NCBI GenBank assembly: GCA_963837425.1
Contig: CAWINH010000002.1
Span: forward strand, 355,175 to 419,174
DNA: 64,000 bases
Direction: 5' to 3'
Origin: an uncultured Chloroflexia bacterium
GTDB taxonomy: Bacteria > Chloroflexota > Limnocylindria > QHBO01
A program made the translations under genes and the position numbers. Below the pieces are notes generated by a model. The model did not search any database. It was not told the DNA's origin and saw nothing but the letters and a program-made list of their open reading frames with translations. Below are positions 15,964-57,267 of the stretch, in pieces. The stretch's first letter is position 1, and every line of letters begins with the position of its first letter.

Positions 15964-16934
15964 GATGGGAGCCAGGCGGCGAGACCCCCGGGGGCGTCGG
16001 TGGCGTGGGCGCTGGTGTCGGGCGCGATGCGGCGGATCAGGCCGGTGAGCACCCGGCCGGGCCCCACCTCCACGAAGTCGGTGACCCCGTCGGCGGCCAT
16101 GCGGCGCACGGTGTCGGTCCACTGCACGCCGTGCACCAGGTGCTCGGTCAGCTCCTTGCGCAGCCCGTCGGCCGTCTGGATCATGCTGGCATGCACGTTC
16201 CCGAGCATGGGCACGCGCGGCTCGCGGAACGGGACCTTGGCCAGGATCTGGCCGAACTCGTCGCGAGCGCGTCGCATGAGCGGGGAGTGGCTCGCCACGC
16301 TGACGGTGAGGCGCACCGCCTTGCGGGCGCCAATGGTCTTGCTCATCTCGAGCGCGAAGACGAGGGCAGGGATGACGCCGGAGAGCACGATCTGTCCCGG
16401 CGCGTTGGCATTCGCGACCCCGATCTCGCCGTGCTGCCGCGCGTGCTCGACGACCTCGTCAACCTGTTCGTCGGAGAGGCCGATGACGGCCCCCATGCCG
16501 CCGTCGATGCCGCGCTCCTGCATGATCCGTCCCCGCTCCCGGACCAGGTGCAGCGCCTCCTCGAAGTCGATGGCATCGGCGGCAACCGCAGCGGCGTACT
16601 GGCCTGCCGAGTGGCCGGCCAGGACCCGGGGAGCCAGCTCCAGGCCGGCGGCGGCTGCCTGGGCGCGCAGCGCCTCGAGATAGGCGACGCTGGTGGCCAG
16701 GATGGCGGGCTGGGCGTTGACCGTGAGGTCCAGGTCCTCGGCCGGTCCCTCGAGGATCATCCGGGTCAGCGGAAAGCCCAGCGCCCGATCCGCGCGCTCC
16801 ATCACCGCGGCCGCCTCCGGCGAGTGCTCGAGCAGGGCGGCGCCCATCCCCACGTACTGCGAGCCCTGGCCGGGAAAGACAAAGGCATGCACGCGGGGGG
16901 GTGCGATGGACTGCGGGTCGGGTGGGTTCGTCAT
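15960..16934 (-). CDS. fabD: Malonyl-CoA:ACP transacylase
   Basis: FVFPGQGSQYVGMG and GHSAGQYAA motifs are present. The ATG overlaps the stop of the upstream M20 gene (ATGA). Confidence 0.8.
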   Translation of the reverse strand: MTNPPDPQSIAPPRVHAFVFPGQGSQYVGMGAALLEHSPEAAAVMERADRALGFPLTRMILEGPAEDLDLTVNAQPAILATSVAYLEALRAQAAAAGLELAPRVLAGHSAGQYAAAVAADAIDFEEALHLVRERGRIMQERGIDGGMGAVIGLSDEQVDEVVEHARQHGEIGVANANAPGQIVLSGVIPALVFALEMSKTIGARKAVRLTVSVASHSPLMRRARDEFGQILAKVPFREPRVPMLGNVHASMIQTADGLRKELTEHLVHGVQWTDTVRRMAADGVTDFVEVGPGRVLTGLIRRIAPDTSAHATDAPGGLAAWLPS

Positions 16935-18371
16935 GCTGAAACGTCAGTGTCTCGTATCCCGGGGAGTATAGCCGTCACCGCCGACCGCTCCCACTCGGGT
17001 GGCGGTCGATCAGGTGCAGAACGCTCCACGACCCGCTGCAGCACGGGCAGGCCAAAGGCCAGGGCGCTCACCGGCAGGCGCTCGTCGTTGGCGTGGAAGA
17101 GCGAGAGGAACGGCACCTGCGGGTCCAGGCGGAGAGGCATGAAGCCGTAGGTCGGGATGCCCAGCAGGCCCAGTGCCTTGGCGTCGGTGCCCGGCGTGAT
17201 CATCATCGGCAGCGGGGTCGCCTCGGGATCGGCTGCGGACAGGACCTCCCGCATGATCGTCACGATCTCGGCCGCGGCGGGCCATTCCACAGGGGGCATG
17301 GTCATCACCGCATCCACCGTCACCTCCGGCCCGGCCACCGCCTGCAGGTGCTCCAGGAAGGCCGCCTGGTCCGTTCCCGGCAGGGTCCGCACGTCGATCT
17401 CCGCTTCGCCGCTGCCGGGCACCACGTTCATCTTGGCGCCGGCGCGGATGACGTTGGGGGTGACCGTGTCGCGCAGCATGGCGTCGAGGGAGCGCCGCAG
17501 GACCGGGTCGGCCACGGCGTCGGCGAGCGCTGTCCGTGCCGCGGCCTCGTCACCCGGGCGGCCAGCTCCGCCACGTTGCCCAGGCCCAGTCCATCGAAGA
17601 ACCCCCGGACGACGGGGATCACCCGGGCCGGTCGCGGGTCGCCCGCCAGGCGGGTGATGGCCGTGGCCAGCTTGATCGCGGCGTTGTCCGGCGAAGGCAT
17701 CGAGCCGTGCGACGGCGTCCCGCTGGCCCGCACCCGGGTCCAGACGATCCCCTTCTCGGCCACCTGGATAGCGTATGACCGCCTTCCGTTAAGGGTGATC
17801 GAGTAGCCGCCGACCTCGTTGAGGGCGGCGGCGGCCGGCTGACCGGCGGCATCGGCGAAGAGATCGGGCCGCTGCTGCACCCAGTGCAGCGCCCCGTGCT
17901 GGCCGCCCGCCTCCTCGTCCGCCAGGGCGGCGAAGATGACCTCCCGTCGTCGCGCTGCGCCGGATCGCTGGAGCGCCACCATGACCTCCAGCTCCATGGC
18001 CACCATCTCCTTCATGTCGACCGCGCCGCGGCCCCAGACGGCGCCGTCCAGCAGCTCCGCGCCGAACGGGTCGCGCGTCCGCCGTCCGCCTCCACGGGGA
18101 CCACGTCCACGTGGGAGAGCAGGATGACCGGCGGCGCGGGGTTCGGCACGGTGGCGGGCAGCCGCGCGAAGCAGGAACCGCGGCCCGGGGCCGTCTCCAG
18201 CACCTCCGCCGGGATGCCTGCCGCGGTGAGCACCTCCGCGCAGTAGGCGGCGGCCGCGTCTCGCCGCCGGTCGAGTCGCGGCCGGCGGCGGTGTCGGTGA
18301 TCCCGGCGGGTTGACGCTCGGGATGCGGATAGCGCGCGGAGGTGATCCACGCAGGCGTCGAGAGCGGTCAT
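16931..18371 (-). pseudogene. M20 family metallopeptidase (ArgE/DapE-like), disrupted by at least 4 frameshifts
   Basis: The N-terminal pieces MTALDACVDHLRAL, IRIPSVNPPG and LLSHVDVVPV alternate between two frames. The GRGAVDMKEM motif and the dimerisation-domain C-terminus (16931-17515) are in further frames. Confidence 0.55.
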
Positions 18372-18399
18372 CCGCGCTACGGTACCGCAGCCCCGGCGG

Positions 18400-19310
18400 G
18401 CGATTAGCCGGCGCGCTCGGGTCGGCTCGGCCGCCGCGGAGACGCTCGCGCACCAGCCGGCCGAGCGGTAGCTCCAGCGCGAGCAGCACCAGGGCCACGA
18501 TCAGCAGCACCGGGAACCGGCCGGCCAGCCCCAGGACGAGCAGGCCGCCCAGGAAGAAAGCATGGATCATGACCCGCGTCGCAAAGGACAGGCGCAGCTC
18601 GAGGATGGCGGCCGGCACCACCCGGCTCTCCGCGATCCGGGCCCCAGACCCCCCGGGCGGCGATGCCGGCGAAGATCGCCAGGGTACCGCGAACAGACCC
18701 AGCCCGCCGCCCGGCCGGGTTCGGTCAGCGGCTTGAGCACGATGAACGGCAGCGCCCAGCAGCAGGATCCCGTAGGCGGCCAGCGGACTGAGGAGCTGGA
18801 GCCACTCACCCCGGGCGGCCGGCGGCCCGCGCGCGGATCCATCGGGTCACCAGGCTGAAGCCCAGGGTCACGAACAGCCAGGCGTAGAAGTTGCCGGCGG
18901 GGACGCCGAACCAGCCCTGGCGTGACCCAGGTTGGCCCAGGTCCAGAGGCCCATCCGGATCGCGATGGCGTCGAAGGCCAGGTCCAGGCTGATGGCCAGC
19001 ACGCTGTCGACGAAGGGCGCGTAGCGGCGGCGCACGCCCAGCGCGTCGGTCAGGCGCATGGCGCCGGCGATGATGAGGGCCCAGGTGAGGCCGATGACCC
19101 GGCGCGCGGTCGATGGTCAGCACCCAGTGCGGGCTGTAGTGGTAGCTCTCGAAGATGAGCTGGTCGCCCTCCTCCAGCAGGATGCCGAACACGGCCGCGG
19201 TGGCCAGCTCCAGGAAGGGGAGCCGGCCACGACGGAGGGCGGCGACTGCGGCGCCGATGAAGAAGAGGGCACCCCGATCTCGAGGCCGAGGTGACCGGAT
19301 CCATCCGCCC
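18400..19310 (-). pseudogene. Multi-pass membrane protein of unknown family, fragmented over three frames
   Basis: Hydrophobic segments AAVFGILLEEGDQLIFESYHYSPHWVLTIDRA, MRLTDALGVRRRYAPFVDSVLAISLDLAFDAIAIRMGLWTWANLG and FYAWLFVTLGFSLVTRWI read as one protein only after frame switching. Confidence 0.3.
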
Positions 19311-19378
19311 GATGATACGCAGATCCGCGGGCCGGCCTCGAGCAGCCGCCGGGGGGCCGCGTCGCGAACCGCCCGCCC

Positions 19379-19960
19379 TCAGCGCGGACCGACCGGGGTC
19401 AACTCCACCAGGTCGAGCATCGCCGCCCCGACGCTGTACTCCTCGTCCGGCTCTGCGCCAAGGGCATCGAGCGTCTTGCTGAAGAAGCAGCGGGCCGCCG
19501 CGGCCAGGACGACGTCGAAGATCTCCGCGTCGGAGAGACCATGGCCGCGGAGCTCCTCCACGTCGGCTGGCGTCACGCGGGTCGCGTCGCTGGCGACCGC
19601 CTCCGCCAGCGACATGACGGCGACCTCGGCATCGGTCAGGCCGGCGTGGCGAAAGTCCCGCACGATGGCCTCCACCTGCCCGTGATCGAAGACCTTCGAC
19701 TCGAGCACCGCGGTGTGCGCCCCCACGCAGTACCGGCAGCGCAATGCGCGCGCGGCGGCCAGGGTGGCCAGCTCATAGCGCCGCAGGTCCATCGGCGCGC
19801 GGATGGCTCGAATCAGGTCGAACCAGGCGCCGTAGATGGCAGGACGCAGGCTGAACAGCTGCGCCTTGTTCGAGACGTAGCCGTTGGATGCGAGGTCGGC
19901 GTCGTACATGGCGCGCACCGCCTCGCCGGCATCGGAGGGTGAAACCGTTCGAAGGTACGC
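19379..19960 (-). CDS. Carboxymuconolactone decarboxylase / AhpD-like family protein
   Basis: MAYLRTVSPSDAGEAVRAMYDADL...ALRCRYCVGAHTAVL carries the CxxxH AhpD-type motif. This is the last gene of the tusA-dsrE-CMD trio. Confidence 0.6.
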   Translation of the reverse strand, partial: AYLRTVSPSDAGEAVRAMYDADLASNGYVSNKAQLFSLRPAIYGAWFDLIRAIRAPMDLRRYELATLAAARALRCRYCVGAHTAVLESKVFDHGQVEAIVRDFRHAGLTDAEVAVMSLAEAVASDATRVTPADVEELRGHGLSDAEIFDVVLAAAARCFFSKTLDALGAEPDEEYSVGAAMLDLVELTPVGPR

Positions 19961-19973
19961 CATCGTGCCGTCC

Positions 19974-20333
19974 TCACCACTCCAGCGTGGCGGCCCCGGC
20001 CGCGAGCTGCTCGACGATGAAGGCCGCGTTGACGATTCGGGCGCCCGGGATGAGGTCCTGCTCGGTGATGCCGCGCGGCTTTGTGCACGCGCCGCAGGCC
20101 CAGATCTCACCGCCGTTGGCAACGTACTGGCCGATGAGCTCGCCGAGCGGCGGCAGCCCGTCCTTGGCGATCTCGTCAGCATAGCCGCGCGTGGCCAGCC
20201 GGACTCCCTCGATGGTCAGCAGCACGGCGGCCGGCTGCTCCGCGGTGGCGGCGATGTTCGCGACGACGAAGGGCATGGTGGCCCGCTCGGCGTCGTCGCG
20301 GCCGGTGGTGGCGTGGGTAATGATGCGCGTCAT
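19974..20333 (-). CDS. DsrE/DsrF-like sulfur-relay family protein
   Basis: 119 aa, with PFVVANIAATAE...GEIWACGACTKPRGI containing the conserved Cys pair of the DsrE fold. It is similar to the second copy at 60011-60382. Confidence 0.6.
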   Translation of the reverse strand: MTRIITHATTGRDDAERATMPFVVANIAATAEQPAAVLLTIEGVRLATRGYADEIAKDGLPPLGELIGQYVANGGEIWACGACTKPRGITEQDLIPGARIVNAAFIVEQLAAGAATLEW

Positions 20334-20366
20334 GTTCGAACTTCCTTTCGAGGACGGATGGTGTGG

Positions 20367-20627
20367 TCAGCCCTTGCGCCGCAGGAGGAACCGACGGCGA
20401 CCGTTACCCTCGTCGTGGACCTCGACCAGCGAATTGCCCGTCAGGCGGGACCACGAGGCCAGGGCCTCGGGGGCGGTCGAGTCGTCGGAGATGACCTCCA
20501 GGCCCTCGCCGGGCGACAGCGCTCGCATGCGTCCGGCGATCACCGGGGTCAGGGTCGCGCAGGTCTCGCCGCTGCCGTCCAGCGTATCGACCGGTTGAAG
20601 GGCACCGTCCGAGTTTGGGTCGCTCAT
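20367..20627 (-). CDS. TusA-like sulfur carrier (SirA/YedF/YeeD family)
   Basis: 86 aa with LDGSGETCATLTPVIAGRMRALSPGEGLEVISDDSTAPEALASW, a TusA fold signature; the canonical CPxP motif is degenerate. Confidence 0.55.
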   Translation of the reverse strand: MSDPNSDGALQPVDTLDGSGETCATLTPVIAGRMRALSPGEGLEVISDDSTAPEALASWSRLTGNSLVEVHDEGNGRRRFLLRRKG

Positions 20628-20809
20628 TGGTTCGTCTCCTGCGTGGGGCGGTTGGGGGCCGCCGGCCGATCTCGACGGCCGGCATGCCCCGCCACGTCGG
20701 TGGTGCCGCTGACGCTACCTGCCGCCCGCGCGGCCGCACATCCGTTCAGCCACGTATGCGCTCTGCCGACGGCGACGGCGTTGTGGCGGCCGGCACGCAG
20801 GTGCCCTGA

Positions 20810-21913
20810 TCAGCCGGCGGCGCGCAGGTAGGCGGCCACCGCCGCGGTGCGGGCCGACCGACCGGCCAGCCCCAGCTTGAGATAGGCGTTCGAGAGATGG
20901 CGTTCCACCGTCCGTGCGGAGAGTCCAAGCGTCGCCGCGATCTCCTGGTTTGAGCTGCCATCGGCGGCCAGCCCGATGATCTCGCGCTGTCGTGCGCTGA
21001 GCTGCAGGACGTCGCCGGCCGGCTGCACCGAGTGGGCCATGCGGTCAGGCTCGAGGAAGGCACTCACCTCGGCCATGAACGTTCGCCACGCGGGCTCATC
21101 GGCGAGCAGGATGTGGTTCGGAGATTCAAGTGGCACGAGTCGCGCTCCGGGGACGCGCGAGGCCAGGTCCAGGCCCTCGTCGAACGGCACGCAGCGGTCG
21201 TCGACGGCGCTCAGCACCAGCGTCGGCGTGCGGATGGCATGGACCCGATCGCGGAGGTCGATGCGCTGGCGCTCGATCCTGCTCTGGAGCATGTTGTCGG
21301 TCGAGGTTGACATCCGCTGCAATTCATCGAACCAGGCGAGCTGCTCCTCGGTTGCCCCGGGGATGAACATGGTCGTGAACACGCGGCGGAAGATTGGGTC
21401 CGGTTTGGCCCAGCCGGCGCGAATCATGGCGCGGAAGGCGACCTCGTCCTCCGGCGGCTCGGGGAAGTAGTCGGGCGCCCCATAGCACGACCCCCCATAC
21501 ATGATCATGCGCGAGACCCGGTCCGGGTGCCGCAGGGCGTACTCGAGTGCCACCGAGGACCCACCCGACATGCCCAGCAGTGCGAAGCGCTCGACGCCCA
21601 CGCTGGCCACCACCGCCTCGAGATCCGCGACGCGGGCGTCGAGAGAGAAGTCGTCCACCGTCCACTCGGAGAGCCCAAATCCGCGCTCGTCGTAGCGAAT
21701 CAGGGTGCTGACGGCTCCCAGGTCCTCCAGGAAGTGGCGCCAGACGGGACTCTCCCAATCATGCTGCAGGTGGCTGAGCCAGCACGAAACGACGATCAGT
21801 GGCGGTCCGCTGCCATGGGTGGCGTAGGCGAGCCGCACCCCGCCCTGGCCTCGACAGAATCGGATCTGCTGGGGAGGTGCCCCTCGCGCGCGGCCGGACC
21901 CGGTCACGGACAT
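20810..21913 (-). CDS. Alpha/beta-hydrolase domain fused to a C-terminal LuxR/GerE-type HTH domain (putative regulator)
   Basis: The N-terminal domain has GMSGGSSVALEYALRHPDRV (nucleophile elbow). The C-terminus has EIIGLAADGSSNQEIAATLGLSARTVERHLSNAYLKLG (LuxR HTH). Confidence 0.6.
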   Translation of the reverse strand: MSVTGSGRARGAPPQQIRFCRGQGGVRLAYATHGSGPPLIVVSCWLSHLQHDWESPVWRHFLEDLGAVSTLIRYDERGFGLSEWTVDDFSLDARVADLEAVVASVGVERFALLGMSGGSSVALEYALRHPDRVSRMIMYGGSCYGAPDYFPEPPEDEVAFRAMIRAGWAKPDPIFRRVFTTMFIPGATEEQLAWFDELQRMSTSTDNMLQSRIERQRIDLRDRVHAIRTPTLVLSAVDDRCVPFDEGLDLASRVPGARLVPLESPNHILLADEPAWRTFMAEVSAFLEPDRMAHSVQPAGDVLQLSARQREIIGLAADGSSNQEIAATLGLSARTVERHLSNAYLKLGLAGRSARTAAVAAYLRAAG

Positions 21914-21968
21914 GCTCCGATCCTACGCGCTCATGTCCACGCCGGCGAGTCCCCGGGCCCCCGGGCGC

Positions 21969-22700
21969 TCACGGCAGCGGCGGCAGGCTCCCGATCCAGC
22001 CCGGCACCAGGATCACCACGGTGCCGAGCGATAGCGCGAGCTGACCGCGGGGACGAGGCGTGCGCCGAGCCGCCATGTCTTCGCGAGACATCACGCCGCC
22101 CAGGGCGGCCATCAGCGTCACGCTCCCCACGCCCACGCCGAACATGACGAGCATCAGCGCCGAGCAGCACCCCAGGCAGTAGATTCCGTTGGCGATCCCA
22201 GGCGAGCGCCGCGCACGCCGGGCGCGTGCGGTGCCAGACGAACTGCAGCGGGTTGCGGTACTCGGTGAGGATCGCTCCTTGAGGGGCGTGAGCTGGAAGA
22301 TCCCGGCGCCGATGAGCAGGGCGCCGCTGATGAGCTGCTTGTGGGCTGCCAGCCAGCCCATCGATCCACCGTGAGTGAGGGCGGATCGCCGCCAGCGCAG
22401 CGCCGCGAAGCGGTCCAGATCACGAAGTAGGCGCCGATGAACGGACCACGATGTCGCGGCGTGGCGATGCCGCCGTGATGCTGGCGTAGATGCGGACACC
22501 GGCAGGGTGCTGGGCAGCATCATGGCGCCGGTCATCAGCTGCCAGATGAGGGAAGATGGGGATGGCGACCAGGATCGGCAGGTTTCCGCCCTCGATGATC
22601 GCGTGGTGGCTGATGAGGTCGCTGCGCCCGGCCAGCACCAGGCCGATGGCCAGTGCCCAGCAGAGCCACGGTTGCCAGGATCCACGTCTGGGGTCGCGCG
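21969..22700 (-). pseudogene. DUF2182-family integral membrane protein (putative metal-binding), with several frameshifts
   Basis: The C-terminal GIANGIYCLGCCSALMLVMF motif and LTPLKER are in frame. ILTEYRNPLQFVWHRTRPACAALA is readable only in another frame. The N-terminal half lies in the 22420-23478 frame. Confidence 0.4.
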
Positions 22701-23384
22701 AGGCGCCGCGATGGCGCCTCCCGCTGTCCGCTGCACGGTTTCCATCTCCAGCCTCGAAGACGAAGCTGCCTGGACCGAGTTGAGGCCGGCGAGGTCGATA
22801 TCGGCCATGCCGTGCGCCGTCTCCGGGCGCCGGAAGATCGAGGCCTTGCCCGGATAGGCCGGCGATCCCGGGATGGTGGAGAAGACCGAGTTGTTGAGCG
22901 TGGTCGTCCCGGTGGGGCCGGAGAGCGGACTGAGTCGCGCCTCGATGGCGTCGCCGATCTTCAGCGTGCCCTCGCCGCCATCCACGGTGAAGGTGATCGG
23001 CGCGCGCTCCACGGCCACGACGTCGCCGATGAGCGCGGCCAGGTCCGCGATGCCGCCGCCGAGCTGCCCGGTGAAGACCTTGAGCAGCGCGTCCTGCTGC
23101 TCCTGGCTTGACGCGTCGTCCACGTACACCACCGCCTTCCAGTTGCCGGCGAAGATGTTTCCGGGGACGTGCACCGATAGCCCAACGGTCAGGCCAGAAA
23201 CGTCGACCCCCTCGACCGTGCCGGCATCGACCTGCCAGGCCAGGGAGGCCTCGCACGTGCCGCCATCGGGGTCGTCGCCGATCGAGCAGGGGCAGATCGC
23301 GTTGCAGGTGCAGACCTCCAGCAGCCGGCCCTCGACGTGGTAGCGCGTGGCGGTGGCCGGATCGTTCGTGTTCGCGACAGTCAT
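22700..23384 (-). CDS. DUF1326-family protein, the usual partner of DUF2182
   Basis: MTVANTNDPATATRYHVEGRLLEVCTCNAICPCSIGDDPDGGTCEASLAW shows the Cys-rich N-terminal motif of DUF1326. A GGAGA RBS lies 8 nt upstream of the ATG at 23384. The 3' end is approximate. Confidence 0.5.
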
Positions 23385-23610
23385 GCGTGCGTCTCCTGTA
23401 TTCCGCTGCTGGTGCGGGACCACGTGTCCCCGTGTTCTGCACGGCCGCCGGGTGCCCAAAGGCGACCCGGCTTGCCATGCACCAACGAGGCTAGGTGCAC
23501 CGATGGAGGCCGGCATCCGCGAGACCACCCAATCTGCAGCGGTGGCCTGATCGGTTACGGCGGTCTGCACGCACTGAAGCGGGCAGAGGTTGGGCCTGGG
23601 TGGTGAGGCC

Positions 23611-24747
23611 TCAGCCGCCGTCTGTCAGGCGCATCTCGACAGCTCGCGCCGCAGCACCCGCGCGGGCCGCCTTACCGCTCAGGCCCAGCTTCACGTACAC
23701 GTTGGAAAGGTGCCGCTCGACGGTCCGGCTGCTGAGGTTCAGCTCCGCGGCGATCCGCTGGTTCGAGTAGCCCAGCCCCACCAGGTCGAGGACCGTCAGC
23801 TCTCGCCGGCTCAGGGCGCCGCGAACCGAGGCCACCGGGAGGCGCGGAGTCGCCGGCCGTCCCGCCCCCACGAACGCGTCCACCAGCTCGAAGAAGCGAG
23901 GCCATGCGTCGTCGGTCGGCTGCAGGACGTGGTTCCTGCCGTGGAACGGGACGAAGCGTGCGCCGGGGATCGCCGCGGCAATGGAGCGGCCCGATTCGAA
24001 GGAAACGACATGGTCGTCGTCGACATGCATGACCAGGGTGGGGACCCGGACCTCGGCTGCCAGCTGCCGTACGTCGAGATCGTCGTCGACCTCGTCGAAG
24101 CGCACCGCGTTTTCGGGTGAGGTCGTGAGGCGCATGAGCTCGTCGTACGCGTGCAGCAGCTCCTCGTTCCCATCCGGGACGAAGCTGCTCGTGAAAACGC
24201 GCCGGAAGACCGGGTTGTCACTGCCCCACGCCAGGCGGATCAGCGTGCGCATGGCGGCCACTTCCTGGCGCTGCTGCTCGGTGATGTCGCGGGCCCCGTA
24301 GCCCATCAGGTAGCCGCCCAGGATGATCAGGTGTGATACCCGCTCAGGATGCCGCGCGGCGTAGGCGATAGCCACCGGCGCTCCCTGGGACATCCCGAAC
24401 AGGGCGAAGCGCTGCATGCCGGCGGCGTCCACCACCACCTCGAGGTCTTCGACCCAGGCCTCGAAGGAGATGTCCTCCACGTCGCGGTCGGAGAGTCCAC
24501 ACCCCCGATCGTCGTATCGCAGGACGGTGAAATGCCTGCCGAGCTCAGTGAGCCACGGATGCCAGATGGTGCTCTCCCAGTCGTACTGGAGGTGGGTCAG
24601 CCAATGGGGGGCTCGGACGAACGGGTACCCGCGCCCGTGGATCGCATAGGCAAGCCGCGTCCCGTCCGGGGTGGTCGCGAACGCGATGCGCTGCTCCTGG
24701 CGCCGGACGCCGATGGGCGATCCGCCTCCGCTTGCCATCCGATCCAT
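23611..24747 (-). CDS. Alpha/beta-hydrolase-LuxR HTH fusion regulator, paralog of 20810-21913
   Basis: GMSQGAPVAIAYAARHPERV plus the C-terminal LTVLDLVGLGYSNQRIAAELNLSSRTVERHLSNVYVKLG; about 45-50% identical to the other copy. Confidence 0.6.
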   Translation of the reverse strand: MDRMASGGGSPIGVRRQEQRIAFATTPDGTRLAYAIHGRGYPFVRAPHWLTHLQYDWESTIWHPWLTELGRHFTVLRYDDRGCGLSDRDVEDISFEAWVEDLEVVVDAAGMQRFALFGMSQGAPVAIAYAARHPERVSHLIILGGYLMGYGARDITEQQRQEVAAMRTLIRLAWGSDNPVFRRVFTSSFVPDGNEELLHAYDELMRLTTSPENAVRFDEVDDDLDVRQLAAEVRVPTLVMHVDDDHVVSFESGRSIAAAIPGARFVPFHGRNHVLQPTDDAWPRFFELVDAFVGAGRPATPRLPVASVRGALSRRELTVLDLVGLGYSNQRIAAELNLSSRTVERHLSNVYVKLGLSGKAARAGAAARAVEMRLTDGG

Positions 24748-24780
24748 GGTACGAAGGGTGTCGAGGCGAACCGTCTTGCC

Positions 24781-25611
24781 TCAAAGGCGTGGTGGGCCGC
24801 GACGGATCCGCTCGCGGACCGTATCCGCCGACTGATCCGATTCCCATCGGCTCTCGATGAACCAGGTCGCTCCGGCTTCCGCCATCGGCGCGAGCATTGC
24901 GCGATCGGCCGCGTGGTCGATGCCGGACGTCAGGCCGTCGACCACGATCTCGAACGGTGCGGAGGACTGCCGGTGCTCTGCCATCCAGGCCGCCACGCCG
25001 GCCACCACCTGGGGCGTGGCCTGCTCGTCGTCACTCGCCCCCGACTTGTCGGAGACGATGATGCCGTCCCAGCGTGCGCAGCGTCGTAGGGACCTCGGGT
25101 GCGGCCAGGCGCCGACTGGCCACACCGGTATCCGCGGCCGTTGCACGGGGAGATCGAACTGGAGATCCCTCATCCAGTAATGCGTACCCTGATAGCTCAC
25201 CGTTTCGCCTGACCATGCCAGCTCCAGGATGTCCAGGCATTCGTCAAGCTTCTCGGCGCGCACGCGCCGCGACGGGTCTTCGGAGCTGACGCGTGAATAG
25301 CCTCCGTCCCAGGTTCCGCCCAGGCCGACCGGCAACACGAATCGGCCATTCGACAGGTTGTCCACCGTGATCGTCTCGCGCGCCACCTTCCACGGTCGAC
25401 GACGCGCGATGGAGAAGACCATGGCACCCAGCGTCACCCGTTCCGTGACGGCCGCCATGGCTCCCAGCACGACCCAGGGATCAAAGACACCGCCGCGCTC
25501 GACGGAGATGTCGTCCCAGGCGAACACCCCGTCCCACCCGGCGGCTTCCGCATCTCGCGCCATGGCCACGTAGTCGTGAACCGTTCCGAACGAGGTGACG
25601 ACGCCGAACTT
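24781..25611 (-). CDS. Luciferase-like monooxygenase (LLM) family, probably F420-dependent oxidoreductase
   Basis: GTG start VKFGVVTSFG with an AAGGAG RBS; TIM-barrel LLM pattern ...GRFVLPVGLGGTWDGGYSRV... Confidence 0.55.
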   Translation of the reverse strand, partial: KFGVVTSFGTVHDYVAMARDAEAAGWDGVFAWDDISVERGGVFDPWVVLGAMAAVTERVTLGAMVFSIARRRPWKVARETITVDNLSNGRFVLPVGLGGTWDGGYSRVSSEDPSRRVRAEKLDECLDILELAWSGETVSYQGTHYWMRDLQFDLPVQRPRIPVWPVGAWPHPRSLRRCARWDGIIVSDKSGASDDEQATPQVVAGVAAWMAEHRQSSAPFEIVVDGLTSGIDHAADRAMLAPMAEAGATWFIESRWESDQSADTVRERIRRGPPRL

Positions 25612-25763
25612 CACTGTTCCGCTCCTTGCGTTGAATGCGCGGCGGCAGCTTCGACGCCTGGCCGAGGCCGCCTGACGTGCGTGCTCTTCGTTCAGGCTAT
25701 ACCCCGCCACGGCAGCAGGTCGGCCCACGCAAGCGGAAGCAACCGCGGCGCTAGAATCGATCC

Positions 25764-27212
25764 ATGGCAACCGAGGTCCTCGCGCCCCACGTCCCCGTCT
25801 ATCTCGCCGGCGAGTTCGTGGAGGCCGGGCCGTCCGCTCGAGGTGCGCAACCCGGCGACCGGGAGAGCTCGATCGCGACCACCTTCCAGGCCGGTCCCGC
25901 GGAGCTGGAGCGCGCAACGATCGCGGCAGTCGAGGCGTTCGCGAAGACCCGCCGCCTGGCGAGCTACCAGCGCCGCGACGCGCTGGCGCATGTGGCGCAG
26001 CGGATCAGCGAGGAGGCGGACGAGCTGGCGGAGCTGCTGACCCGCGAGTCGGGCAAGCCGATCCGCGATGCGCGGGGCGAGGTGGCGCGCGCGGCGCTCA
26101 CCTTCCGCACCGCGGGCGAGGAGGCGCTGCGCATCACCGGGGAGTGGATGCCGCTCGACTGGAACGCGGCCAATCGCGGCCGATCGGGGATCGTGCGCCG
26201 CTACCCGATCGGGCCGGTGGCGGGGATCAGCCCCTTCAACTTCCCGCTCAACCTCGCCGCGCACAAGGTCGCGCCGGCGATCGCGGCCGGGCTGCAGCAT
26301 CGTCCTCAAGCCCCCGTCGGTCGACCCGCTGGTCATGCTGCGCGTGGCGCGCTACATCGACGAGACGGACCTCCCGGCCGGCGCGGTCAGCATCCTGCCC
26401 ATGGATCGGCCCACCGGGGACGCCATGGTCCGCGACGAGCGGTTCAAGCTGCTCAGCTTCACAGGCTCCCCATCGGTCGGCTGGAAGATGAAGGCCGATG
26501 CCGGCAAGAAGAAGGTCGTCCTCGAGCTGGGTGGCAACGCCGGTGCGATCGTGGACGAGACCGCGGACCTCGACTGGGCGGTCAGCCGCCTGGTGTACGG
26601 CTCGTTCGCCTACGCCGGGCAGGTCTGCATCAGCGTCCAGCGCATCTACGTCGTGGCGTCGGTCTACGACGAGTTCGCGGCGCGCTTCGTGGCGAAGGTG
26701 CCGCGAGCTCAGGATCGGCGATCCGCTGGATCCGGCCACCGACCTGGGGCCGATGGTCGATGCCAAGGCGGTGGCGCGCACCCACGAATGGGTGACCGAG
26801 GCAATCGACGCCGGCGCCAGCGCCCTGGTCGGCGGCGAGCCGGGCGGCCTGGTCTATCCGCCAACCGTGCTCGTGGACGTGCCGAAGAGCGCGCAGGGTG
26901 TGCGGTGAGGAGGTCTTCGCGCCGGTGGTCAATCTCTTCGGGGTGCCGGACTTCGCGACGGCGATCGACGAGATCAACGACAGCCAGTTCGGGCTCCAGT
27001 GCGGGGTCTTCACGAACGACATGGAGCGGACGCTCACCGCGCACGACGAGCTGGAGGTTGGCGGGATCATCGTCAACGACATCCCCACCTGGCGGATCGA
27101 CCCCATGCCCTACGGCGGGGTGAAGGACTCGGGCCTTGGTCGCGAGGGGCTCCGCTGGTCGATCGAGGACATGACCGAGCCGCGGCTCCTCGCCTTCGCC
27201 CGGCCGCTGTGA
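25764..27212 (+). pseudogene. NAD(P)-dependent aldehyde dehydrogenase, at least 3 frameshifts
   Basis: Pieces in frames 25764, 26068, 26498 and 26898 make a full ALDH: FNFPLNLAAHKVAPAIAAG, ELGGNAGAIVDETADLDWAV, QVCISVQRIYV, GLQCGVFTNDMERT. Confidence 0.6.
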
Positions 27213-27556
27213 CCCTGACGACCCGCTACGCGCGGATCCTGCGCGCCGAAGAGCTGCGCGACGGCGAGCTGATCCCGGTGGTGATCGACGGGACACCGGT
27301 GGTCGTGGTCCGGCATGCCGGCGACTTCTACGCCGTGCAGAACAACTGCAGCCACCAGGATTTCCCGCTCACCGAGGCCGGGTTCGACGCGCGCGATGCC
27401 GTGCTCGTGTGCGCCTGGCACGGCGGCTGCTTCGACGTGCGCACCGGCGCCGCGGTCGCACTGCCGGCAACCGAACCGGTCGAGACCTTCCCGGTGCGGG
27501 TCAGCGTGGACGGCTGGGTCGAGCTCGGCCTCACGGGGAGCCTGGCGCGCTCATAG
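27209..27556 (+). CDS. Rieske [2Fe-2S] ferredoxin domain protein
   Basis: CSHQDFPL...CAWHGGCF (CxH..CxxH). The GTG start overlaps the ALDH stop (GTGA). Confidence 0.6.
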   Translation: MTLTTRYARILRAEELRDGELIPVVIDGTPVVVVRHAGDFYAVQNNCSHQDFPLTEAGFDARDAVLVCAWHGGCFDVRTGAAVALPATEPVETFPVRVSVDGWVELGLTGSLARS

Positions 27557-27588
27557 TGCCTCGGGGCCCATCGGTATACTCGGCCGCG

Positions 27589-28338
27589 GTGACGATCGAG
27601 GCGCTTCCGTTCGTGAACTGGATCTTCTGGGCGACGCTCACCGCCGGCTCGCTGCTGGTGGTGGGAGTCACTGAGCTTGCCGGCGGCACGACCCGCGGGT
27701 ATCGGCTGTTCATGGCCTGGCTGCTGGCCGCCTGCGCGGCGATCCTCCTGCTATCGGAGCTGAACCTCTCGTCGGGGACCGTTGTCGACACGACGGGTGG
27801 GATGCGCCGTCTGCTGGTGATCGCCTTCGTGGCGGGAACGATCGCGTACCTTGTCGCCTCCCTGGCCAGGCTGCCGCGCGCCGCCCTCGCGGTCGGGACG
27901 GCGCTCATCGGCGTCCTGGCGCTGGCAGCATTGGCGGTATCGGCCCCGACCTGGAGCTCCACGCTCTTCACCGGCCAGCTGATCGCGGCGGCGCTGGCGC
28001 TCGGCTCGGTGAAGGCGGCGATGTTGCTCGGCCACTGGTACCTCGTCACGCCTCGTCTCTCTCCGACGCCGCTGCGGCGGATGATGTGGCTGCTGGTCCT
28101 CGCCCTGGCCCTGCAGGGGATCCTTTTCGTCGTCGCGGTGCTGGTGGTCAGCAGCGGGCCGCTCGGCGGCCCGATCGGCCCGCTCACCTGGCTGCGCGTG
28201 CTGGTCGGGATCGTGCTGCCCCTCGGGATCACCGTGCTGGCACTCATCGCCAGTCGTGCGGCCTCGCTGCAGGCCAGCACCGGACTGCTGTACATCGGCC
28301 TGGCGTTCGTGGCGGCCGGCTCGCATCGCCGGCTCGAG
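27589..28338 (+). CDS. Polytopic membrane protein of unknown function, reading in frame into moaD with no stop
   Basis: Six or more hydrophobic helices (FWATLTAGSLLVVGV, LLAACAAILLL, LIGVLALAALAV, LVLALALQGILFVVAVLVV, VLVGIVLPLGITVLALIA). An AGGAGG RBS immediately precedes the moaD ATG at 28378 in the same frame. Confidence 0.35.
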
Positions 28339-28377
28339 TATCACGTTCCTCACTGGCGTGCCGGTTTAGGAGGCCAC

Positions 28378-28620
28378 ATGCAGGTCCGCATCCGCTTCTT
28401 CGCCACCCTCCGCGAGGCGGCAGCCGATCGCACCACGCTGACGCTGGCCGATGGCGCGTCGATCGAGGACGCGTGGGCGGAGCTCGCGTCTCAGTGGCCG
28501 GCGCTCGCGCCGCACCGCGAGTGGGTGCGGGCCGCGCTGAACGGGGCGTACACGACCTTCGACGCGCGGGTCGCCGATGGCGATGAGGTCGCCTTCCTGC
28601 CGCCGGTCAGCGGCGGCGGC
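28378..28620 (+). CDS. moaD: MoaD/ThiS-type sulfur carrier ending in GlyGly
   Basis: MQVRIRFFATLREAAADRTTLTLADGASIEDAWAEL...DGDEVAFLPPVSGG followed by a GGCGGCGGCGGC run. Confidence 0.55.
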
Positions 28621-29036
28621 GGCCCTCGGCCTGACCGATGCGCCGATCGACGTGGCGGCCCTCGAGCGTGAGCTCGCGGACACGGCTCACGGCGCCGTCG
28701 TCACCTTCGTGGGACGAGCGCGCAGGACCGCGGACGACGGGCGCGCGGTGATCGAGCTCGAGTACGAGGCCTACCACGAGATGGCGGAGTCGGTGCTGCG
28801 CCAGATTGCGCGCAGAGGCCCGCGAACGCTGGCCAGGGGTGGCGGTGGCCGTCGTGCACCGCGTCGGTGTTGTGCCGCTCGGAGAGGCGGCGGTGGCCAT
28901 CGTCACCGCCGCGCCGCATCGTGCGGCGGCCTACGAGGCGAATCGCCACGTCATCGAGGCGATCAAGGATCGTCTGCCGATCTGGAAGCGCGAGCGCTTC
29001 GCCGACGGGAGCGAATGGAAGCGCCCCGGCGCCTAG
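28600..29036 (+). pseudogene. moaE: Molybdopterin synthase catalytic subunit MoaE with one frameshift; possibly fused to MoaD (MoaX-like) through the GGC repeat
   Basis: AVVTFVGRARRTADDGRAVIELEYEAYHEMAE is in one frame, and ERWPGVAVAVVHRVGVVPLGEAAVAIVTAAPHRAAAYEANRHVIEAIKDRLPIWKRE in another (shift near 28815). Confidence 0.5.
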
Positions 29037-29620
29037 CCCTCGTGGGCTGCCAGATGGGCCAGCCACGCGCGCGCGGCCGCCGGTGACGCCAGGCGCACGG
29101 CATGCAGGTGCGGATACGCGGCGATCAGCTCCGGGTACTCGCGCCGACGCCGCCGATACGTCGAGAGGATCCACCACAGCAGGCCGTCGCGCCTGAAAAG
29201 ATGCATCCCGACCGTCTCGTGGTTCCCGGTCCCGGGCCACAGCTCTTCACGGCTCCGCCCGCGTCGCCAAGTCCTGGCCAGGTACTGGCGGAGAATCGTG
29301 CGCAGCGAAACGTCGAGCCAGACGACCGCCGCGGCCCGGCCCCAGACGATGTCGCGGGTGACCGAGTAGTTGCCGTCCACCACCCAGCCGTCGCCGGCGG
29401 TGGCGCGATCGACGCGCTCGCGCATGACCGGGTCGGGGACCTCGGTCCAGTTCCGTTCCCAGTGCAGGGCATCGAGCTCCACGTACGCGACCTGCAGGAC
29501 CTCCGCCAGGGCGCGGGCCAGCGTCGACTTGCCCGATGCGCTGGTCCCCACCACGCTCACGCGCCGGTAGGGGAACGGGACGAATCCGGCCCGCTGAGCC
29601 GCCAAAGCCTGCGATCCCAT
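29033..29620 (-). CDS. P-loop NTPase, adenylate-kinase/shikimate-kinase-like small kinase
   Basis: Walker A motif VVGTSASGKSTLARALA; about 195 aa. Confidence 0.5.
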   Translation of the reverse strand: MGSQALAAQRAGFVPFPYRRVSVVGTSASGKSTLARALAEVLQVAYVELDALHWERNWTEVPDPVMRERVDRATAGDGWVVDGNYSVTRDIVWGRAAAVVWLDVSLRTILRQYLARTWRRGRSREELWPGTGNHETVGMHLFRRDGLLWWILSTYRRRRREYPELIAAYPHLHAVRLASPAAARAWLAHLAAHEG

Positions 29621-29703
29621 GGGAATCCGGATTCTAGGCGCGCGGTGCGGCCGGGGGTCGACGGGTGGCGAGCACTGGCCTCGCCGTGCAAAATGCGCGG
29701 TGA

Positions 29704-30759
29704 TGCCAACCCCCAAGCCGGGGCAGATCCGCTGCCCGACCTGTTCGCGCTCGACCCCGCCGGCGGCCTACTGCACGCAGTGCGGGTCGCCCATTCCGGT
29801 CTCGGTTCGCGCCAGACCGCGCGGTCTGGACCGCGAGGAGCTGGAGGAGCGCGTCCGCGGCCGGCGGCCGGAAGAGGCGCCGTTTCGGCGCGGCACCGAG
29901 CCGGACCCCTCCGACGTCTACCAGCCGTTCACGCCCGAGCCGGAGGACGCGCTCGCGGTTCGTGAGACGGAGGGCTCCGAGCCCGAGCCGCCGCGCGTCG
30001 ACAACGCGCCGCCGGACCTGTACGAGAGTCCTCCGGCCGCGGTCGGCGCTCCCCCCGCATGAGCAGGCTCCATCGGTCGAGGCCTGGGGTCCCGCCGATG
30101 CCGGAGGCGGCGAGGAGCCTCCCTATGCGGAGCCTCCATACGCCTCCCCGTACCTTCCCGAGGACCCGGGACGGCGCGATTCGGGCGCGCTCCCACTGCT
30201 CGGGTTCGCGGCCCTGGCCGTGATGGCGCTCGCGGTCGGCGTGATCCTGGCCGGGCTCTTCAGCCCGAGCGGGACGGCGGAGGCGTCTCCGACCCCCACC
30301 CTGGCCCCGACGGCGGCACCGACCCAGACCGCCGCCGCATCGGTGGCCCCGGAGTCGGTCGCGCCCGTGGAATCGTCAACGCCCGAACCCACCGATGGGC
30401 CGGTCACCTTCCCGGATGGCGCGATGCTGACCGTCCAGCCGTGCGGGACGTACGAGTTCCAGGATGACCTGAGCGGGTGCCTGGTCGACGGCTCGGTCCG
30501 CGACACCGGCACCGTGTGGGTTCTCGCCACGTTCAAGCGCGCCAACGGCAACGACCAGCTGTCGGTCGATTCTCCAGTCGAACGCAGACACGCTGGACCG
30601 GGTCGACCTGGCCATCGGGCAGGTCCTCCCCGACTGCTCCAATACGTGCAGCGGGCTCGTCTGGGTACGAACCTGGAAGGACCTCCAGCCGGGTACCTAC
30701 CACCTCGTCCTGCGCCGAAACGGCGGCTTCGCGGACAGCGCCGACTTCGTCGTCCAGTA
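29704..30759 (+). pseudogene. N-terminal zinc-ribbon, Pro-rich linker, TM helix and extracellular domain protein, with 2 frameshifts
   Basis: CPTCSRSTPPAAYCTQCGSP at the N-terminus. After a shift near 30040 comes the TM helix LLGFAALAVMALAVGVILAGLF and an ectodomain. After another shift near 30570 the C-terminus reads ...YHLVLRRNGGFADSADFVVQ. Confidence 0.4.
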
Positions 30760-30765
30760 GTGCGG

Positions 30766-31867
30766 TCAGGACTCGGTGTCGCTGCGCTCCCATGCCTCGC
30801 GGCTGATGCGCGTCGGCCGCGCCTCGCCTCCGGCCGCGCGTCGCCGATGGGCGAGCGCCGAGATGGCCTCGAGGACGCAGCGATGCGCCGCAGCGGCGGT
30901 GACCTCCGAGACGTCGTACGGCGGGCTCGACCTCCACGACGTCCATCCCAACCAGCTCGACCGCGGTGACGACCTGGCGGACGGCGCGCAGCAGCTCCCG
31001 GGTCAGCATCCCGCCCGGCTCGGGCGTGCCGGTCCCCGGCGCCATCCCCGGGTCGATGACGTCGATGTCAACTGAGAGGTAGATCACCTCTGGGCCGTCG
31101 AGCGCCTCGGCGATCGCATCGGCGATGACCGCCTCCGCCCCGCGCTCTTCGATCTCGGTCATGAAATGGCAGCGCAGCCCGTTCTCGCGCATCCAGGCCA
31201 CGGTGTCGGGTGGCGGCCAGTAGCCGCGCAGCCCGACCTGCACGAAGTTCCGGCCGGCGACCGCTCCCGACTCGATGAGACGGCGCATCGGGGTCCCGTG
31301 AGACCGGAGCACGCCCCACGTGGTGGCAGCGGTGTCGGCGTGCGCGTCGAAATGCACGACCCCGAGCCGCCGCGGGTCGACGGCCGCGGCGACCGCCGAT
31401 GCCGCCGGAAACGTGATCGAGTGGTCGCCTCCCAGCACGATCGGGATGGCGCCGCTGGCCGCGACCTCCGACACCTTGCGGCGAATGACCTCGTGCCCTC
31501 GATCGAGGTTTGCCGGGACCACCGGCGCGTCCCCGGCGTCCACCACGTCGAGCCATTCGAAGGGCAGGATGTCGAGCTGGAGCGAGTTGATGTCGCCCGA
31601 GTGATAGGACGCTGCCCGAATGGCGCGCGGTCCGAAGCGCGCCCCCGGACGGTTGCTGACCGCGTCATCCAGCGGCGCCCCGACGATCGCGACGTCCGGC
31701 CGACGCGAGGCGAGCTCCTCGGCGCCGGTCACGTAGGGCAGCTTCTGGAATGTGGGCAGGCCCACGTACGCGGGCAGGTCGAAGTCGTCGTAGGCGACGT
31801 AGGGATCGACGTCGCGCGGCGGATGCTCGTCGTTCACGCCACGCCGTCGGCGCATCTCGTCGACCAT
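30766..31867 (-). pseudogene. speB: Agmatinase/arginase-family ureohydrolase with one frameshift near the 3' end
   Basis: GGDHSITFPAASAV, DAHADT, SVDIDVIDPGMAPGTGTPEPGG. The C-terminus VSPPYDVSEVTAAAAHRCVLEAIS is in the neighbouring frame (30766-30951). Confidence 0.6.
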
Positions 31868-31980
31868 GGCTGGCCCCCGAACGCATCCCGGGCGGACGCC
31901 GTCGCGGCGCGGAGCAGGCCCGTCACGGGGTCACCGCCCGCGATCCTACCAGAGCGGCCTCCCCTGCTACCATCGCCAGG

Positions 31981-32304
31981 ATGGCGCAAGGCCGACGCGT
32001 GTACACCATCGAGGAGGCGAACGAGCTCCTGCCACAGGTGCGCGCGATCATTCTCGGGCTTGCGGTGGAGCAGCATCGGACGGCCGGCGGCGGCGACGCG
32101 GCGAGTGGGCAGGCGGCCGTCACCGCATTCGTGTCGTTGCTCGACGAGCTCGGCGTCCAGCTGCGCGACATCGAGATGGGCCTCGTCGATTTCCCGGCGG
32201 AGCGCGACGGACGACCGGTCTGGCTGTGCTGGCGCCTCGCCGATCCGACGGTGGCCCACTGGCACGGCACGCAGGAGGGCTATGCCTCGCGACGAACGTG
32301 GTGA
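31981..32304 (+). CDS. DUF2203-family small protein
   Basis: MAQGRRVYTIEEANELLPQVRAIILGL; overlaps the start of the downstream kinase. Confidence 0.4.
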   Translation: MAQGRRVYTIEEANELLPQVRAIILGLAVEQHRTAGGGDAASGQAAVTAFVSLLDELGVQLRDIEMGLVDFPAERDGRPVWLCWRLADPTVAHWHGTQEGYASRRTW

Positions 32305-34171: not shown

Positions 34172-34248
34172 GTTGCAGGCAGGTCTCATCGGGGCCGAGC
34201 TGGGGTATGCTGCCGCAGGTACGTGGGCGCTACGCAGCACGGAGGGTG

Positions 34249-57191: not shown

Positions 57192-57267
57192 TGGTGGAGC
57201 TGGGGGGACTCGAACCCCCGACCCCCTGCATGCCATGCAGGTGCTCTCCCAGCTGAGCTACAACCCC
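57192..57267 (-). tRNA. tRNA-Ala (anticodon GGC), CCA-encoded, G3:U70 identity pair
   Basis: The reverse complement reads GGGGTTGTAGCTCAGCTGGGAGAGCACCTGCATGGCATGCAGGGGGTCGGGGGTTCGAGTCCCCCCAGCTCCACCA. This folds into a canonical cloverleaf with anticodon loop ATGGCAT. Confidence 0.85.

Follow-up and report, generated by a model that had tools for sequence, protein, structure and literature searches.

The locus studied here lies in a 64-kb stretch of DNA from an uncultured Chloroflexia bacterium (contig CAWINH010000002.1). This whole stretch is referred to as the window; positions in it serve as coordinates, and its G+C content is about 70%. The locus comprises two genes for proteins in which an alpha/beta-hydrolase (ABH) domain is fused to a LuxR-type helix-turn-helix (HTH) domain, termed ABH-LuxR#1 and ABH-LuxR#2. 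Between them lie a DUF1326 gene and a gene for a membrane protein of the DUF2182/PpoB2 family. The initial annotation, made from the sequence of the window, had placed these four genes exactly. They all lie on the minus strand, as do all genes between 19.4 and 25.9 kb according to the list of open reading frames (ORFs) and Pfam. The motifs quoted there, GMSGG in ABH-LuxR#1, GMSQG in ABH-LuxR#2, CTCNAICPC in DUF1326 and CLGCC in DUF2182, were all found, and the two regulators are indeed paralogous, with 46% identity over 341 residues in a pairwise alignment. The features of the locus are listed in Table 1.

Table 1 Features of the locus and positions of protein X in related contigs
Feature	Position	Strand	Basis or remark
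Luciferase-like oxidoreductase	within ORF 24781-25917	-	Pfam
ABH-LuxR#2, 378 residues	23611-24747	-	uninterrupted ORF, Pfam
Gap between ABH-LuxR#2 and DUF1326			226 nt
Element copy 1	23483-23574	-	model R1, E 5e-12
Copy 1, box M1 TGCGTGCAGACCGCC	23559-23573	-
Copy 1, box M2 TTGGGTGGTCTCGCGGATG	23514-23532	-
Copy 1, -10-like hexamer TAGCCT	23488-23493	-	20 nt past M2
GC-rich leader hairpin/dyad copy 1, GCATGGCAAGCCGGGTCGCC-TTTG-GGCACCCGGCGGCC	23443-23480	-	downstream of the -10-like hexamer
Palindrome GGGAC-N5-GTCCC	23416-23430	.	DUF1326 leader, just upstream of the ribosome-binding site; only one in the window
DUF1326 gene	22747-23384 (start 23384)	-	PF07040
Trp to Ser site in DUF1326	23282-23284		nearly invariant Trp34
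DUF2182/PpoB2-family membrane protein gene	21969-22746	-	PF09948; broken here
Trp to Ser site in PpoB2	~22162-22164
ABH-LuxR#1, 367 residues	20810-21913	-	uninterrupted ORF, Pfam; start 56 nt past the PpoB2 stop
Element copy 2	20708-20800	-	model R1, E 2.6e-9; conserved in comparison with L078
Copy 2, box M1	20785-20799	-
Copy 2, box M2	~20739-20757	-
Copy 2, -10-like hexamer TAGCGT	~20712-20717	-
GC-rich leader hairpin/dyad copy 2, GCATGCCGGCCG-TCGAGAT-CGGCCGGCGGCC	20657-20687	-
Gap between ABH-LuxR#1 and TusA			182 nt
Putative target operon of ABH-LuxR#1 (TusA, DsrE, AhpD-like)	19379-20627	-
TusA	20367-20627	-	Pfam
DsrE	19974-20333	-	Pfam
AhpD-like CMD protein	here within ORF 19379-20182	-	NCBIfam peroxidase-related, 76.5 bits; 194 residues as called on L081/L082
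Protein X, contig L002	11329-11877
Protein X, contig L001	~2324-2875
Protein X, contig L165	4093-4632		same sequence as L085/L166

Both regulators consist of an N-terminal hydrolase domain and a C-terminal GerE domain. Abhydrolase_1 (PF00561, cut-off 25.8) was matched with 60.3 bits (E 3e-16) by ABH-LuxR#1 and with 72.4 bits (E 6e-20) by ABH-LuxR#2, and GerE (PF00196, cut-off 23.5) with 53 bits (E 2e-14) by both. The N-terminus is the hydrolase, and no Pfam match to an autoinducer-binding domain was seen in either protein down to E 0.01. Both hydrolase domains contain the nucleophile elbow G-x-S-x-G, the acid and the histidine in the canonical order, namely Ser116 (in GMSGG), Asp238 and His267 in ABH-LuxR#1 and Ser120 (in GMSQG), Asp245 and His273 in ABH-LuxR#2. 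In an alignment of 62 sequences, the serine and the aspartate are each conserved in 60 (the other two having leucine and glutamate, respectively) and the histidine in all. The triad, the retention of which had been proposed as a check, is kept in both domains and in nearly all homologues. Other invariant residues (W49, W57, S59, W62, R77, D79, R81, S86 and W174) may line the pocket.

The structure prediction that had been suggested yielded a confident esterase-like fold with a flexible linker and an HTH. The AlphaFold (AF2) model of ABH-LuxR#2 (pLDDT 91, pTM 0.76) comprises a hydrolase core, a four-helix cap at residues 157-231, a flexible linker of low confidence at about 294-304 and a four-helix GerE/LuxR HTH at 305-376. 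All Foldseek matches were stand-alone esterases, aryl esterases/haloperoxidases, PHB depolymerase or enol-lactonase with 18-26% identity, and the nearest solved folds had a target-normalised TM of about 0.82. Across phyla, hardly any variation is seen in the stretch RTVERHLSN-Y-KLG of the recognition helix, which agrees with a conserved DNA site.

The fusion is a genuine single gene, both domains being encoded by one ORF here and in the best homologues. Since it is common to the homologues, the possibility that it would split into two genes on reannotation is excluded. A protein search with ABH-LuxR#2 retrieved at least 7854 proteins at E<=0.001. The best 120 homologues are 49-100% identical and carry both domains within about 350-425 residues, except for three proteins of 630-650 residues (P0002, P0003 and P0006, 49-51% identical), which have two hydrolase domains without GerE and are tandem hydrolase fusions with a relationship to the sensor domain. 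With one genome per species, at least 584 loci encoding an ABH-LuxR relative were confirmed. Among the loci listed are members of Chloroflexota, Actinomycetota, Gemmatimonadota, Beta- and Gammaproteobacteria, Acidobacteriota, Bacteroidota and Deinococcota, soil members of Actinomycetota being among them, and the cultured hosts include Cupriavidus, Mycolicibacterium, Pseudonocardia, Agromyces and Georgenia. A related locus with the hydrolase part only (L066, VBBQ01000003.1, 49% identity) lies on a contig assigned by binning to a Bathyarchaeota archaeon, and a binning error or a transfer may account for this. Nothing relevant on a hydrolase-LuxR fusion was found in the literature searched, and surveys of LuxR proteins in Actinobacteria and Gram-positives are silent on hydrolases. 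The family is large and apparently unstudied.

The DNA following the ABH-LuxR#2 gene was aligned with that of the related contig L002, and the alignment was then extended to all of the 80 ABH-LuxR genome loci used for comparison. This revealed a conserved element of about 85 nucleotides (nt) directly past the ABH-LuxR stop codon. It consists of a box M1 (cTGCGTGyAnnCCGCCA), a spacer of 15-30 nt, a box M2 (TTGGGTGGTGnCnCCGATG), a spacer of 19-22 nt (mostly 20) and a -10-like hexamer TAnnnT, in which T, A and T are invariant in an 18-sequence alignment. M1 and M2 resemble direct repeats of TGsGTG-N5-CsCsA, and the distances between them are of two classes, which differ by about 9-12 nt, or nearly one helical turn. 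M2 lies too far from the -10-like hexamer to be a plain -35 hexamer, and this reading was rejected. The sequence-only model R1, trained on 18 examples, gave about 35 matches at E<1e-4 in 1.4 Mb (about 35 of the 80 loci), 17 of them outside the training set. Most matches lie just past the ABH-LuxR stop codon; the others are placed either divergently from the gene or some 2 kb upstream of it. Exactly two matches are present in the window, one after each regulator, the next best having an E of 0.24. Of 70 genes, 25-26 have the strict pattern past their stop codon. Where the target is of the major facilitator superfamily (MFS), the start codon lies 2-5 nt past the element in at least five loci; leaderless mRNAs would have such a layout, and it supports the assignment of the -10 hexamer.

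In Gemmatimonadota, Bacteroidota and others, the same position is occupied by a variant, the palindrome GGGAC-N4-5-GTCCC with a proximal box TnGGGAC-N5-6-GyCTCAyG. Six of the 20 occurrences of this palindrome in 1.35 Mb lie within 200 nt past an ABH-LuxR stop codon, compared with about 0.2 expected; the window has one in the DUF1326 leader. A GC-rich hairpin or dyad with the pattern GGC-Aw-GCCGG...CCGGC-G-GCC and a variable centre is found in the leaders of both putative target operons of the window and in L002 (11228-11266), L001 (2215-2253), L085/L165, L086, L167 and L078. Compensatory changes were observed in four of its 12 pairs across eight sequences, and it has no Rfam match. Scanning the whole window with Rfam at gathering scores gave a tRNA at 57195-57267 as the sole match, and a scan of 20600-24800 at E<=1 gave none. 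A simple scan of 20500-25000 for promoters and terminators detected no sigma-70 consensus promoter and no convincing terminator.

The initial annotation had described the DUF1326-DUF2182 pair as bracketed by the two regulators. This description does not hold: the regulators do not jointly flank one target, each has its own promoter-like element downstream, and relatives of ABH-LuxR#1 adjoin TusA/DsrE. We lean, by a modest margin, towards reading the locus as two tandem one-component regulator-to-target modules rather than as one pair flanked by two regulators. Each module would consist of an ABH-LuxR gene, the two-box element and a target operon. In module 2, ABH-LuxR#2 would act through element copy 1 on DUF1326-PpoB2, and in module 1, ABH-LuxR#1 would act through element copy 2 on the TusA, DsrE and AhpD-like genes. 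The latter arrangement has counterparts elsewhere. On L078, a regulator 64% identical to ABH-LuxR#1 is divergent from TusA-DsrE; the element lies on the side of TusA, and blocks of the intergenic DNA are conserved. On L067 (Pseudonocardia zijingensis), a relative of 54% identity directly precedes a DsrE-like gene. Bracketing was also rejected as a conserved arrangement, as the paralogues on L002 are adjacent and both upstream, and the gene after PpoB2 on L167 is not a regulator. Since no element lies between PpoB2 and ABH-LuxR#1 and the gap is only 56 nt, ABH-LuxR#1 may be co-transcribed with DUF1326-PpoB2, which would make the two modules a cascade.

The linkage of regulator and pair was followed in both directions. 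Only four of the 80 ABH-LuxR loci contain DUF1326/PpoB2 within 10 kb (L002, L030, L037 and L052), and L002 is the only one of them with direct synteny with the window. In this Chloroflexia metagenome-assembled genome, copies similar to ABH-LuxR#1 and ABH-LuxR#2 stand in tandem and are followed by protein X, DUF1326, PpoB2 and a DMT-type transporter. The reverse set, the 80 nearest DUF1326 metagenome loci (49-96% identity, many of the contigs being short), held no ABH-LuxR orthologue, the only trace being a LuxR-type C-terminal tail upstream of DUF1326 on L086. On L165 (DUF1326 94-96% identical), a regulator 69% identical to ABH-LuxR#2 is followed by X and DUF1326; on L167/168 (about 80%), a regulator of 67% identity is followed by DUF1326 and PpoB2; and on L169 (about 74%), the order is X-like protein, DUF1326 and PpoB2, with no regulator. 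Regulators of the ABH-LuxR#2 type precede DUF1326, or X and then DUF1326, on L002, L165, L167/168 and L081/82. DUF1326-DUF2182-DMT cassettes of Ralstonia and Cupriavidus megaplasmids (54-58% identical) have no ABH-LuxR. All-against-all clustering of flanking ORFs yielded no neighbour common to more than about 10 of the 80 loci. Given the four of 80 forward loci, the nearly empty reverse set and the Ralstonia and Cupriavidus cassettes, the direct linkage is real but confined to a shallow, probably Chloroflexota clade, and it is not a rule of the family. The co-occurrence for which an analysis had been proposed is borne out in close relatives (L002, L165 and L167/168) but not as a property of the family.

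The scarcity of the pair near ABH-LuxR genes and the cassettes without a regulator would also fit a coincidental neighbourhood, in which the regulators control distant genes, or the upstream luciferase-like and aldehyde dehydrogenase genes, and DUF1326/PpoB2 landed between two paralogues. In L165 and L167, an aldehyde dehydrogenase gene is indeed located upstream of the regulator, in divergent orientation. We nevertheless regard this explanation as very unlikely, because the element points from each regulator to the downstream operon, at least five distinct sequences share the order regulator, element, (X), DUF1326, their regulators being only 60-70% identical, and the R1 element is also absent from 10 DUF1326 loci without a regulator.

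The first gene past the element differs considerably between loci. It encodes a stand-alone hydrolase in about 10 loci, an MFS transporter in about seven, OsmC in three, an Rv2258c-like methyltransferase in three to four, TusA/DsrE in three, SBP56 in two (nine by adjacency) and protein X in two; DUF1326-PpoB2, a BBE-type FAD oxidase and an acyl-CoA-dehydrogenase-like protein are further types. Judged by family label, many of these types relate to peroxide, thiol or sulfide chemistry or to export. SBP56 (selenium-binding/methanethiol-oxidase family, Pfam E 1e-183) is close to the regulator in nine of the 80 loci (L009, L010, L029, L046, L053, L059, L063, L064 and L070, mostly Gemmatimonadota and Solirubrobacterales), in six of them directly after it; none is present in the window.

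The assignment of the pair itself is clear. DUF1326 matches PF07040 with 178 bits (E 2e-52, cut-off 25). Its cysteine cluster C-x-C-x3-C-P-C is accompanied by one more cysteine, and C25, C27, C31, C33 and C44 are invariant in 40 sequences. DUF2182 matches PF09948 (COG5486) with 87.6 bits (E 1e-24, cut-off 28.7) despite its frameshifts, and the intact gene on the related contig L081 has a precomputed Pfam hit. The PpoB2-family protein has five to six hydrophobic segments and the motifs CLTEC and CLGCC. NCBIfam has no family for either protein. The two genes are direct neighbours in the window and in all DUF1326 loci of sufficient length to show it, and the genes called on related contigs in the 21 kb surrounding the pair include no tyrosinase or other copper enzyme. 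The pair had been described as uncharacterised, which is no longer accurate. PF09948 is now named 'PpoB2, copper chaperone' after a membrane protein of Marinomonas mediterranea that delivers copper to tyrosinase (PMC2855505). In a 2026 paper, a DUF2182/DUF1326 pair was described as DmdE/DmdF; mutants did not grow on DMSP, and purified DmdF consumed H2O2, showing peroxidase activity, while actinomycete-type homologues were phylogenetically distinct and had no link to DMSP genes (PMC12992908).

Several observations concern the surroundings of the pair in other contigs. Protein X, a secreted protein of about 180 residues that matches no Pfam family, contains the conserved stretch ...HCDG...HDH(I/V)LPVAPGDPGY(T/S)GAW... 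and may be an extracytoplasmic metal-binding partner. In relatives, its gene lies between the element of the regulator and DUF1326; it is absent from the window. On L137, a metagenome contig of lower G+C content, DUF1326-PpoB2 is followed by a 68-residue GerE-only protein (1597-1803), the HTH of which is 58% identical to that of ABH-LuxR#2 and which looks like a hydrolase-less counterpart. On L147, L149 and L152 (about 12.2-14.4 kb), the pair is followed by a TetR gene and a 720-residue fusion of an alpha/beta-hydrolase and a GT28-type glycosyltransferase. Hydrolase matches of 27-29% on these three contigs belong to this fusion and were rejected as ABH-LuxR.

The frameshift reported for DUF2182 is real in this sequence; the damage is larger than described, reaches the 3' end of DUF1326 and most likely arose in assembly. 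An identical ABH-LuxR#2 protein (P0001) is encoded in the same gene order on two further public contigs, L081 and L082, with an intact DUF1326 of 212 residues and an intact PpoB2 of 268 residues (L081 12008-12814). L081 served as the reference for mapping insertions and deletions. The window is about 93% identical to it overall and about 99% identical across 23000-25500. Between 22027 and 22768, about 30 bases are missing from the window in about 29 deletion events, mostly of single bases, and there are no insertions. About 27 short deletions break the PpoB2 gene. A 1-nt deletion near 22768 shifts the frame of the last eight DUF1326 codons and a 3-nt deletion near 22749 removes the stop codon; DUF1326 and DUF2182 lie within one artificial ORF of 533 residues (21969-23570). 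Neither regulator gene has any insertion or deletion relative to L081. Over the 15.5 kb from 19251 to 34754, 82 such events were counted. Frameshifts are also present in the aldehyde dehydrogenase gene (25764-27123, six inserted bases) and in MoaE/ThiS (six inserted and six deleted bases), and the M20 peptidase gene (16931-18621) is split. This load, together with the jump in identity, suggests an indel-prone, possibly strain-chimeric assembly or a recent recombination tract.

The breaks in PpoB2 thus probably stem from a consensus error, in an assembly that is prone to indels and possibly of mixed strains. This is the likelier reading because only deletions are seen, they cluster where identity switches from 99% to 93%, as for a mixed-strain consensus, intact genes exist on the two related contigs, the substitutions look selected and other genes of the window are frameshifted as well. 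A true pseudogene, with the module decaying in this strain, is unlikely by comparison. The number of events and their extension into the DUF1326 stop codon would be in line with decay, as would the share of first and second codon positions among the substitutions (46% in PpoB2, 22% in ABH-LuxR#1). In both window genes, moreover, the conserved tryptophan after the cysteine motif (CPCW in DUF1326, GCCW in PpoB2) is replaced by serine through a TGG to TCG change. The decay of bacterial pseudogenes is expected to bring many more substitutions per indel, as well as insertions; the ratio of indels to substitutions is here about 0.6, far from that pattern. The 27 synonymous and 21 non-synonymous codons in PpoB2 resemble the balance in intact neighbours such as PfkB and MoaE, and the flanking genes are free of indels.

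Several points weigh against the reading of the locus as two functional modules. The replacement of tryptophan by serine in both genes could mean degeneration or error, and the frameshift should be taken as biology only with read support. The element is found in only about 35 of the 80 loci and does not always follow the regulator, lying about 2 kb upstream in some of them; L165 has no R1 match at E<0.1 despite the same gene order. The targets vary so widely (hydrolase, MFS, OsmC, methyltransferase, SBP56 and others) that no single signal can be deduced from them. Two of the 62 homologues have leucine in place of the nucleophile serine, so hydrolysis is not essential in every member. Finally, the boxes are at best weakly palindromic, whereas inverted repeats are the binding sites of many GerE-type proteins; a different protein could bind the boxes, or they could belong to the promoter of a special sigma factor.

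This last point extends to the possibility that the element is not an ABH-LuxR operator at all, but a dedicated sigma-factor promoter or a conserved RNA such as a small RNA derived from the 3' untranslated region or a leader. The operator role is read from sequence, and the conserved GC-rich hairpin that follows the element in this clade would suit an RNA. We consider this improbable, as in several phyla the element accompanies ABH-LuxR genes irrespective of the gene that follows, and in divergent layouts (L016, L028 and L078) it stays 5' of the target rather than 3' of the regulator. The spacing of the boxes changes by a step of nearly 10 nt, as would suit a protein bound to one face of the DNA. 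An RNA hairpin formed by M1 and M2 was rejected, no pairing being seen by eye, and Rfam gave no match to the element.

With the two modules as the preferred reading, a mechanism can be proposed. The GerE domain would bind the M1 and M2 boxes; M2 overlaps the -35 position, as the site of an activator would. The hydrolase domain would bind, and probably turn over, a small ester, lactone or thioester under the four-helix cap, whereupon DNA binding would change. The gene products would then handle copper and reactive sulfur or peroxide chemistry, as suggested by the cysteine-rich DUF1326, the PpoB2-type copper chaperone, TusA/DsrE and the AhpD-like protein. A bolder generalisation, which we offer tentatively, is that the ABH-LuxR proteins are widespread, unrecognised hydrolase-type receptors fused to DNA-binding domains, functional analogues of D14/KAI2 of plants. 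Upon binding an ester, lactone or thioester signal and hydrolysing it slowly, they would switch on the adjacent gene through the two-box promoter, with a two-step cascade in the present locus. Since many targets belong to thiol, sulfide, peroxide or copper chemistry (SBP56, TusA/DsrE, OsmC, AhpD-like, DUF1326-PpoB2), such a receptor class may sense a volatile or reactive organosulfur compound.

The complete and almost universally conserved triad would equally suit trigger enzymes like PutA and BirA, that is, metabolic esterases or lactonases of a nearby pathway whose DNA binding reports substrate occupancy. In sequence and in fold, the proteins closest to the hydrolase domain are active enzymes, namely PcaD enol-lactonase, aryl esterases and PHB depolymerase, and in 10 loci the first target is another stand-alone hydrolase. 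This explanation appears unlikely: the genes are not embedded in a conserved catabolic pathway, their targets are heterogeneous, the nucleophile is missing from two homologues, and every curated enzyme model in NCBIfam scores far under its cut-off for the hydrolase domain. In practice it overlaps with the model of ligand-dependent regulators preferred here.

One-component regulators are the main bacterial route for sensing small molecules. An esterase-like domain with a complete triad as the putative sensor of a transcription factor is new in that no description was found in the literature searched. The most useful outcome is a candidate regulator-operator pair for a large uncharacterised hydrolase-HTH family: the two-box element is a concrete candidate DNA target, the downstream genes provide a read-out, and the pair can be tested in a cultured host. 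For the poorly understood DUF1326/PpoB2 pair, a candidate dedicated regulator is now available in one clade, which offers a route to the inducing condition.

With regard to known systems, the pair of the window resembles PpoB2 of Marinomonas mediterranea and DmdE/DmdF of Roseobacters in its PF09948 and PF07040 domains, its adjacency and its cysteine motifs. In contrast to those systems, DUF1326 comes first here and PpoB2 second, and no tyrosinase, dmdA or acuI was found among the genes called around the pair on related contigs. Instead of the dmdR, dmdA and acuI genes of the DmdE/DmdF operon, the neighbours are a luciferase-like oxidoreductase, an aldehyde dehydrogenase, TusA, DsrE and CMD genes.

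Among curated enzyme families, the 3-oxoadipate enol-lactonase PcaD is closest in sequence to the hydrolase domain and has the fold and triad positions in common with it; TIGR02427 gives 90 and 97 bits (E 9e-28) against a cut-off of 255.85, and PDB 2xua was matched with E 5e-17. ABH-LuxR differs from PcaD in its additional HTH domain and in the absence of a beta-ketoadipate pathway context. The mycobacterial LipJ (Rv1900c) has a comparable architecture, in that its N-terminal hydrolase, which belongs to the same subfamily, is joined to an output domain for signalling; in LipJ this is an adenylate cyclase rather than an HTH. ABH-LuxR is not a member of that family: ABH-LuxR#1 and ABH-LuxR#2 match the LipJ model NF058673 with 68 and 84 bits (E 1e-23), in the hydrolase part only, the cut-off being 800.

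Like the LuxR/FixJ regulators with a GerE domain (DosR, MalT/LAL and LuxR/TraR), ABH-LuxR has this four-helix domain at its C-terminus; unlike them, it carries a full alpha/beta-hydrolase at the N-terminus in place of a receiver, an autoinducer-binding domain or an AAA/TPR module. The GGGAC-N4-5-GTCCC site of some ABH-LuxR clades resembles the DosR box. Hydrolase-type receptors are known from plants (D14/KAI2 and GID1) and from Bacillus subtilis (RsbQ); the triad is kept in D14, KAI2 and RsbQ, and catalysis has been lost in GID1. We found no specific sequence relationship of ABH-LuxR to these proteins, the best matches being bacterial esterases and PcaD. By analogy, we infer a receptor role for the hydrolase domain: as in D14, KAI2 and RsbQ, a capped hydrolase with a retained triad would serve as the putative sensor, and the few members without the nucleophile may be compared with GID1. 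Whereas D14/KAI2, GID1 and RsbQ act via partner proteins, the hydrolase of ABH-LuxR is fused directly to the DNA-binding domain.

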